In this document: piece after piece, positions 13,961-14,080 of the stretch
Layout: each line of letters begins with the position of its first letter
How positions within the stretch are numbered: position 1 is the stretch's first letter
Origin: Rhina ancylostomus
Lineage: Eukaryota
Assembly: GCA_030265395.1 (NCBI GenBank)
Contig: JARFYF010000112.1
Location: 79,086,820-79,150,819 of the forward strand
DNA length: 64,000 nt
Direction: 5' to 3'
Position numbers and translations under genes: made by a program
The notes under the pieces: generated by a model
What the model was told of the DNA's origin: nothing
Databases searched by the model: none
What the model saw: only the letters and a program-made list of their open reading frames with translations

Positions 13961-14080
13961 TTATATACACCGAACTGTTGACCGTAAAATGCGATATGCA
14001 GCAAAAACACGGTAGCCCTCCAAGGGTGCTGGAGACAGACAGACCTTATGCATTTTACGGTCTCGGCATGGTGTATATAA
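13961..14080. repeat. Local inverted repeat (arm B 14050-14080 with arm C 13961-13992) enclosing the ECS
   Basis: Two perfect blocks: ttatatacacc (13961-13971) with ggtgtatataa (14070-14080), and gaccgtaaaatgc (13980-13992) with gcattttacggtc (14050-14062). Confidence 0.9.
13995..14025 (-). promoter_or_regulatory. Editing-complementary sequence (ECS) for the Q/R site
   Basis: 13995-14004 (tatgcagcaa) is the exact reverse complement of exon 14331-14340. Pairing extends without gaps over 31 nt (14340-14310 vs 13995-14025): 22 Watson-Crick, 6 G-U, 3 mismatches. It lies +331..+340 from the Q/R adenosine and has the UUGCUGCAUA core of the GRIA2 ECS. Confidence 0.88.

Follow-up and report, generated by a model that had tools for sequence, protein, structure and literature searches.

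The intron behind the M1/M2 exon of GRIA3, in the 64,000-nt stretch of DNA analyzed here (the window), contains a Q/R editing substrate with a third arm. This arm C lies directly behind the ECS. It is of ancient origin, has been conserved, and can pair with arm B, the 3′ strand of the editing-inducer stem; the arm is real, a function is likely, and its mechanism is predicted. The reading that we favor, tentatively, is that arm C is a conserved strand-exchange timer that would end the inducer, or editing-promoting, state. The editing substrate itself is already known. Neither arm C nor the combination of arm C and ECS across GRIA paralogues was described in the full-text literature that we searched, outside which most subscription papers lie. 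The features of the intron and its surroundings are collected in Table 1.

Table 1. Features of the GRIA3 Q/R region and a related locus (positions are those of the window unless a locus is named)
Feature	Position	Strand	Description
M1/M2 exon of GRIA3 (S1 end, M1, M2 pore loop)	14311..14682	-	Translation and GluA family match
Splice donor after M2 exon	14305..14310	-	Adjoins exon-ECS helix; from sequence
Arm A (A1 14284-14272, A2 14256-14247)	14244..14289	-	5′ strand of editing-inducer stem
Unconserved loop segment	14159..14206	-	Predicted pairing with exon end in B-C state; possible lineage-specific decoy
Arm B (B2 14080-14070, B1 14062-14050)	14044..14083	-	Partner common to A and C
ECS	13995..14028	-	Pairs with exon end, 28 bp, Q/R adenosine paired
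Arm C1	13980..13992	-	13/13 pairs with B1; 5′ half alternatively extends exon-ECS helix
Arm C2	13961..13971	-	11/11 pairs with B2
Further GRIA3 exons	57827-57594, ~40500-40330, 28061-27950, ~19930-19720	-	Other exons of the gene
L002	1834-2230	+	GRIA2 Q/R intron; L003 and L004, same intron on minus strand

Host Gene of the Editing Substrate

The window gene was identified as GRIA3 because its best N-terminal-domain exon match was GluA3: the exon at 57630-57821 (minus strand) scored 93 bits with GluA3, compared with 86 for GluA1 and 85 for GluA2. The genome contains exactly four exons of the M1/M2 type, and N-terminal exon matches assigned GRIA2 to contig C52, GRIA4 to contig C7 and GRIA1 to contig C74 (the last from 26 residues only); the host gene of the window substrate is not GRIA2, and the other three paralogues lie on other contigs. 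The codon at the Q/R position is a genomic Q codon with its target adenosine at 14335 (minus strand), the intron follows directly behind the exon, and the donor position is identical across all four GRIA paralogues of the genome. Within the window, the GRIA3 introns presumably harbor many LINE-like fragments. Given its four paralogues, a genome of 2.2 Gb and the types of repeat present, the host is likely a cartilaginous fish. Among the runs listed, 20 of 24 (from 13 studies) contained at least some of the stretch, with 0.9 of its words present in the best run, which excludes an assembly artifact; no RNA run was listed among those containing it.

Pairing Partners of Arm B

The ECS lies ~300 nt into the intron, and its helix with the exon end comprises 28 pairs (-34.5 kcal/mol), with only five contiguous pairs 5′ of the Q/R adenosine. 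The original prediction described arm C as a copy of arm A placed directly after the ECS. It proved to be a near copy, with 12 of 13 letters equal between A1 and C1 and 9 of 10 between A2 and C2, and C1 begins 2 nt past the end of the ECS (13995); the spacers between the blocks differ, being 15 nt long in arm A and 8 nt in arm C. The perfect 13-bp and 11-bp blocks foreseen between B and C across a 57-nt loop were likewise found (13/13 and 11/11, with C1-B1 pairing spanning 57 nt). The B-to-C segment folded at -44.1 kcal/mol (z = -4.41) and none of 200 dinucleotide shuffles did as well, so this fold is not due to chance. The B-C duplex itself (-34.9 kcal/mol) was matched by none of 500 shuffles of C and by none of 223 downstream windows.

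A-B had been described as longer-range, with wobbles and mismatches; it is not the weaker helix, being longer than B-C (~31 versus ~25 predicted pairs) and as stable (-35.5 versus -34.9 kcal/mol). The two stems occupy the same bases of B and, with one strand shared, strictly exclude each other, as had been proposed; that exclusivity need not extend to B-C and the exon-ECS helix, which could coexist as a pseudoknot, a structure that the folding program cannot score. By its offset against the numbering in the accessible text of PMC3553965 and PMC5654063, the A-run of arm B would correspond roughly to intronic hotspot 2 of GluA2.

A scan of 4227 Rfam families gave no match at E ≤ 1 for positions 13700-14300. 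The B1 13-mer had 11 matches in the genome, 3 of them known arms, against 8 for a control pattern, and is therefore not a dispersed element. An A-B-C triple helix was also rejected, since no more than four U-A-U triples could form and the start of C is at the opposite end of the exon-ECS helix. In the variable loop, a consensus-like donor word occurs at 14173 (minus strand) and, at nearly the same place, at intron +131 of the GRIA4 locus (L003). Both words lie behind an in-frame stop, their use would give a decay-prone transcript, and their occurrence may be chance.

Conservation of Arm C

The order A-B-ECS-C was present in five of six distinct loci, namely GRIA3 of the window, GRIA2 (L002) and GRIA4 (L003) of the same genome, L013 and L015; the conservation of arm C, by which the original prediction was to be tested, is borne out by its retention in the last four of these. 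A pattern scan of metagenome contigs supplied L013, L014 and L015. We take L013 to be a bony-fish-type GRIA3 and L015 an amniote-type GRIA2, judging from the M1-M2 loop and the flanking repeat, and L014 was left out of the counts because it repeats L013 over B-C and is without exon and arm A. The sixth locus, GRIA1 (L004), has a weaker ECS (-27.6 kcal/mol) and decayed arms, which do not align, and it was excluded from the five-locus alignment. A search of a collection of genome contigs for further homologues gave no matches. Since arm C is also present in GRIA2 and GRIA4, it cannot alone explain how a non-GRIA2 gene tolerates an ECS, the role originally envisaged for it.

Arm C lay 2-4 nt behind the ECS in all five aligned loci, and the linker between B and the ECS was never shorter than 23 nt. 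Block identity across these loci was 0.95 for A1, 1.0 for A2, 0.89 for B2, 0.86 for B1 and 0.95 for the ECS; it was 0.82 for C1 and 0.69 for C2 (one row being misaligned for C2), and it was 0.36, 0.49 and 0.47 for the unconserved loop, B-ECS linker and C spacer, respectively. B-C alignment cells were paired in 94.8% of 115 cases, versus 27-49% in slid-partner controls, and the shuffles as good as the B-C duplex numbered 0, 0, 0, 1 and 0 of 500 per locus. Two credible double changes occurred in B1-C1, from C-G to U-A in L015 and from U-A to G-U in L002. The total B-C count of three includes one alignment artifact, was reached by 14 of 500 shuffles and, coming from five sequences, is suggestive only. 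No double change was seen in A-B in the five loci, because arm A hardly varies, and one A2 position was unpaired with B in all five. The B-C duplex had a strength of -30 to -35 kcal/mol in GRIA3 and GRIA4 and of -21 to -27 kcal/mol in GRIA2.

Arm A can also fold on itself (-11.9 kcal/mol in the window). Such self-folding is possible in all five loci, and the invariant A2 base that mismatches B is paired there; at -8 to -15 kcal/mol and with z of only -1.8 to +0.9, the self-hairpin was rejected as independent support and gives a weak hint.

In GRIA2-type contigs of two other organisms (runs X12 and X15, compared with 13994-14068), B and the ECS are kept and the 3′ half of C1 is lost. Only the first 7 nt of C1 remain there, as read from 30-nt loose ends that were assigned to GRIA2 by eye. 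Four runs were aligned to the intron; three gave only short pieces (of paralogue type, plus one 40-nt match downstream of C) and one gave nothing. None of the pieces extended over the whole stretch and no GRIA3 contig was among them, a blank that counts neither way. An exon-pairing ECS and a genomic Q codon were found in all four GRIA paralogues (-27.6 to -36.8 kcal/mol), a distribution of sequence features which suggests that the Q/R editing substrate likely predates the GRIA1-4 duplications.

Predicted Energetics of a Proposed Strand Exchange

Folding predictions for the window gene gave the editing fold a probability of 1.0 until C was complete (intron +316 to +346), after which the predicted probability of B-C was 0.39 and then 0.88-0.94. 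The order of folding that had been proposed, with the editing fold first and B-C after C, was thus reproduced; the complete displacement proposed with it fared less well, as direct nested refolding met barriers of 51-69 kcal/mol (upper bounds), which make a fast spontaneous full flip unlikely. B-C depended on C, as expected, and on both of its blocks, since scrambling C, C1 or C2 removed B-C in 18 of 18 folding trials. The suggested influence of temperature also emerged from the predictions for the window gene, with B-C less populated in the cold (0.01-0.21 at 10°C versus 0.69-0.93 at 37°C); the value at 37°C varied from 0.30 to 0.97 with the size of the folded segment, a spread no wider than the error expected of the energy model. 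In GRIA2, the probability of B-C was 0.000 in all 12 C-containing segments, and likewise in all 12 for GRIA4.

A full switch, in which the exon-ECS helix is also opened, was predicted at -1 to -5 kcal/mol in the window gene and at +9 to +32 kcal/mol in the four other loci; in GRIA4 and bony-fish GRIA3 the editing fold was favored by +14 to +16 kcal/mol. The balance in the window gene is owed to pairing between the exon end and the loop at 14206-14159, which is not conserved (-33.6 kcal/mol, equaled by 3 of 300 dinucleotide shuffles), a signal that the same shuffle test found absent in all four other loci. When this loop was shuffled, the full switch of the window gene cost +1.6 to +10.0 kcal/mol in eight of eight trials. 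The complementarity of the loop to the exon end may be a lineage-specific decoy or chance.

With exon and ECS masked, exchange of A for C was predicted at -2.6, +2.3, +0.3, -2.1 and +2.8 kcal/mol in the five loci, the pseudoknot cost not being counted, and the barriers were 20-33 kcal/mol. Because A-B and B-C lie within 3 kcal/mol of each other in all five, the conserved near-balance would be that of the A-to-C exchange and not of exon-ECS loss. Inosine at Q/R and +4 was predicted to shift the balance by 1.7-4.4 kcal/mol toward B-C. When an arm-A adenosine was also replaced by inosine, the shift was 3.3-6.1 kcal/mol in the three loci having that adenosine, and inosines in the A-run of arm B reversed part of the shift (in L015, all of it).

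We also considered whether formation of B-C would free the donor, and the opposite was predicted. The mean unpaired probability of the donor region in the window gene was 0.28 in the editing fold versus 0.03-0.05 in the B-C state, and a donor that is more paired in the latter argues against simple splice-site release. The GRIA4 editing fold was predicted to be as stable as that of GRIA2, and on this modeled stability GluA4 may be Q/R-edited in the host of the source genome.

Discussion

The substrate in the window GRIA3 resembles the GluA2 Q/R substrate, as set out in the accessible text of PMC3553965, in its exon, its genomic Q codon and its 28-bp exon-ECS helix, and the two also have in common the ECS core, an internal loop, a long intronic stem and a variable loop. 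The 11-nt core of the ECS is identical to that of the mouse Gria2 ECS given in the accessible part of PMC7045468. The known substrate resides in GRIA2 exon 11/intron 11, whereas the one described here is found in GRIA3, in GRIA4 and, decayed, in GRIA1. A-B is homologous to helices II-III of PMC3553965 and to the inducer stem that PMC5654063 describes for GluA2 (editing inducer element, EIE); at ~31 predicted pairs it is shorter than the mouse EIE (43-45 bp), and a visual comparison matched the mouse primers of PMC5654063 to A1, B1 and the ECS. The accessible account of helices I-III (PMC3553965) covers an inverted repeat up to the ECS and calls what lies beyond "unstructured," with no third arm. 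In the accessible text of PMC5654063 the EIE is described as one static stem, whereas its 3′ strand has a second conserved partner here. The elements of PMC3595034 are likewise intronic and shared by GRIA paralogues since the genome duplications, but the human GRIA elements in the available part of that source map to the R/G and flip/flop region, with ~23-25 kb between them and the Q/R site, and none is listed there at the Q/R intron.

As a strand-exchange timer, arm C would act late. Transcription order would let A-B and the exon-ECS helix form first, as the predicted ADAR2 substrate, and C would be the last part transcribed, anchored at the base of the exon-ECS helix. Because of the large internal loop A-B could bend back, C would invade B by branch migration, and the exchange would begin with the exon-ECS helix still paired, as a pseudoknot. 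Displacement of A from B would move the ADAR-recruiting duplex from its usual place, and prior editing may ease the exchange, given a predicted shift of 2-6 kcal/mol to B-C with inosines at Q/R, +4 and arm A. C would in this way close the editing window and the RNA would be passed to splicing. The strength of C would tune the editing window per paralogue, being strongest in the window GRIA3 and weaker in GRIA2, and editing of the window GRIA3 would be partial and higher at low temperature.

The layout in five of six loci, the maintained B-C pairing, the near-balanced exchange, the inosine shifts and the B-C strengths of the paralogues count in favor of the timer. So do the partial loss of C1 in the two GRIA2-type contigs, the zebrafish editing data and the coupling of GluA2 splicing to editing, which are taken up below. 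Counting against it are model predictions, namely a full switch that would be uphill by 9-32 kcal/mol in four of five loci, P(B-C) of 0.000 in GRIA2 and GRIA4, and masked-exchange barriers that would still be 20-33 kcal/mol in a calculation that ignores the pseudoknot penalty. Further points against it are the reliance of the window gene's balance on the unconserved loop and on segment size, the more paired donor in its B-C state, the opposing effect of inosines in the A-run of arm B, and covariation drawn from five sequences. Amniote GRIA2, which is presumably fully edited, also retains a recognizable C. Competing intronic RNA pairings are known to steer splicing, as do the docking and selector sequences of Dscam. 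Arm B is like these in that one intronic strand has two mutually exclusive conserved partners; it is unlike them in that it belongs to an ADAR substrate beside one donor, with no exon choice, and the function of arm C is predicted.

Retention of C for a reason other than pairing with B seems somewhat unlikely to us. Its 5′ half would then extend the exon-ECS helix, the rest would be a repeated protein-binding motif as in A, and B-C complementarity would have arisen incidentally when A was duplicated long ago. In the editing fold, C1 does pair through its first 4-7 nt with exon sequence 5′ of the Q/R codon, which would explain the fixed ECS-C distance too. Furthermore, C2 in L013 and L015 copies A2 even where this mismatches B, the two GRIA2-type contigs retain only the first 7 nt of C1, and B-C is unpopulated in the GRIA2 and GRIA4 ensembles. 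However, the two double changes track B and not A, neither the 3′ half of C1 nor any part of C2 has a conserved partner apart from B, and C of the window and of GRIA4 departs from A exactly where pairing with B improves.

We consider it unlikely that B-C forms together with the exon-ECS helix as a pseudoknot, stacked on its Q/R end, and serves as a second, editing-promoting ADAR platform. The order exon, B, ECS, C with a short ECS-C1 link (3-4 nt) in all five loci would suit such a structure, as would a B-ECS linker of at least 23 nt, long enough by our estimate for 28 bp, and the run of only five contiguous pairs 5′ of the Q/R adenosine. Before loop penalties, strand exchange by itself is energetically favorable in four of five loci. 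Helices of more than two turns each are, however, topologically hard to form together. In addition, a foreign upstream inducer that replaces A-B restores wild-type Q/R editing in the mouse reporters described in the accessible part of PMC5654063, so B-C is not needed for efficient editing.

A full two-state switch special to non-GRIA2 subunits, in which B-C would capture the ECS in its loop and turn editing off, is very unlikely. Its nested states are within 1-5 kcal/mol in the window gene, C1 and C2 are both needed and temperature dependence is predicted, but it is unbalanced in GRIA4 and bony-fish GRIA3 (+14 to +16 kcal/mol), depends on an unconserved loop, faces nested barriers of up to 69 kcal/mol and has to contend with the presence of C in GRIA2 too. 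It is barely credible that arm C is just a neutral remnant of some past local duplication, for although C decays in GRIA1 and some GRIA2 orthologues, C1 identity is 0.82 over three paralogues and three vertebrate lineages, compared with 0.36 for the neighboring loop.

Published editing data for zebrafish, in the parts of the sources accessible, put Q/R editing of gria2a at ~100% (PMC8096273). The adult-brain coding sites in the accessible supplement of that paper have no Q/R row for gria3 or gria4, a larval screen that applied a 2% threshold lists gria3a Q/R and +4 with no mark of failure (PMC4670233, accessible part), and among adults Q/R editing of gria3a was confined to one sample (available supplements of PMC4670233 and PMC8096273). 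One fish GRIA3 thus seems to be weakly Q/R-edited, which fits attenuation and does not tie attenuation to C. For gria3b, the accessible part of PMC8096273 gives a non-canonical R/G edit of 21-41%, an adjoining silent P edit and a silent E edit 109 nt upstream. These edits fit the last codons of the M2 exon (compared with L013, 2-147, plus strand), and another P-R in the exon could also fit. Editing may therefore take place next to the donor, within the exon-ECS helix of fish GRIA3. As for GluA2, splicing becomes ~3.8 times more efficient once the RNA is edited, with a dependence on Q/R and hotspot 2 (PMC3553965; coupling also in PMC8257547), and the accessible text of both papers leaves the coupling mechanism unexplained.

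Editing of the GluA2 Q/R site is a textbook essential event, and the conserved strand behind the ECS offers a concrete and cheap mutagenesis target for the question of why efficient splicing of its intron requires editing. Whatever the mechanism, GRIA2, GRIA3 and GRIA4 of one genome all have both ECS and inducer stem intact, and GRIA1 has them in decayed form, which suggests that the substrate existed before the GRIA duplications and disappeared afterwards from mammalian GluA1, 3 and 4. For fishes of the source genome's kind, the prediction is Q/R editing of GluA3 and GluA4. It is possible, if doubtful, that the structure was a three-strand switch from the start, that this module is older than the GRIA1-4 split, and that arm C, as a hidden timer, couples editing and splicing of GluA2 and in fishes keeps the Q/R editing of GluA3 and GluA4 partial and dependent on temperature. 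If true, the calcium permeability of AMPA receptors in fishes would be tuned on subunits that were thought never to be edited.
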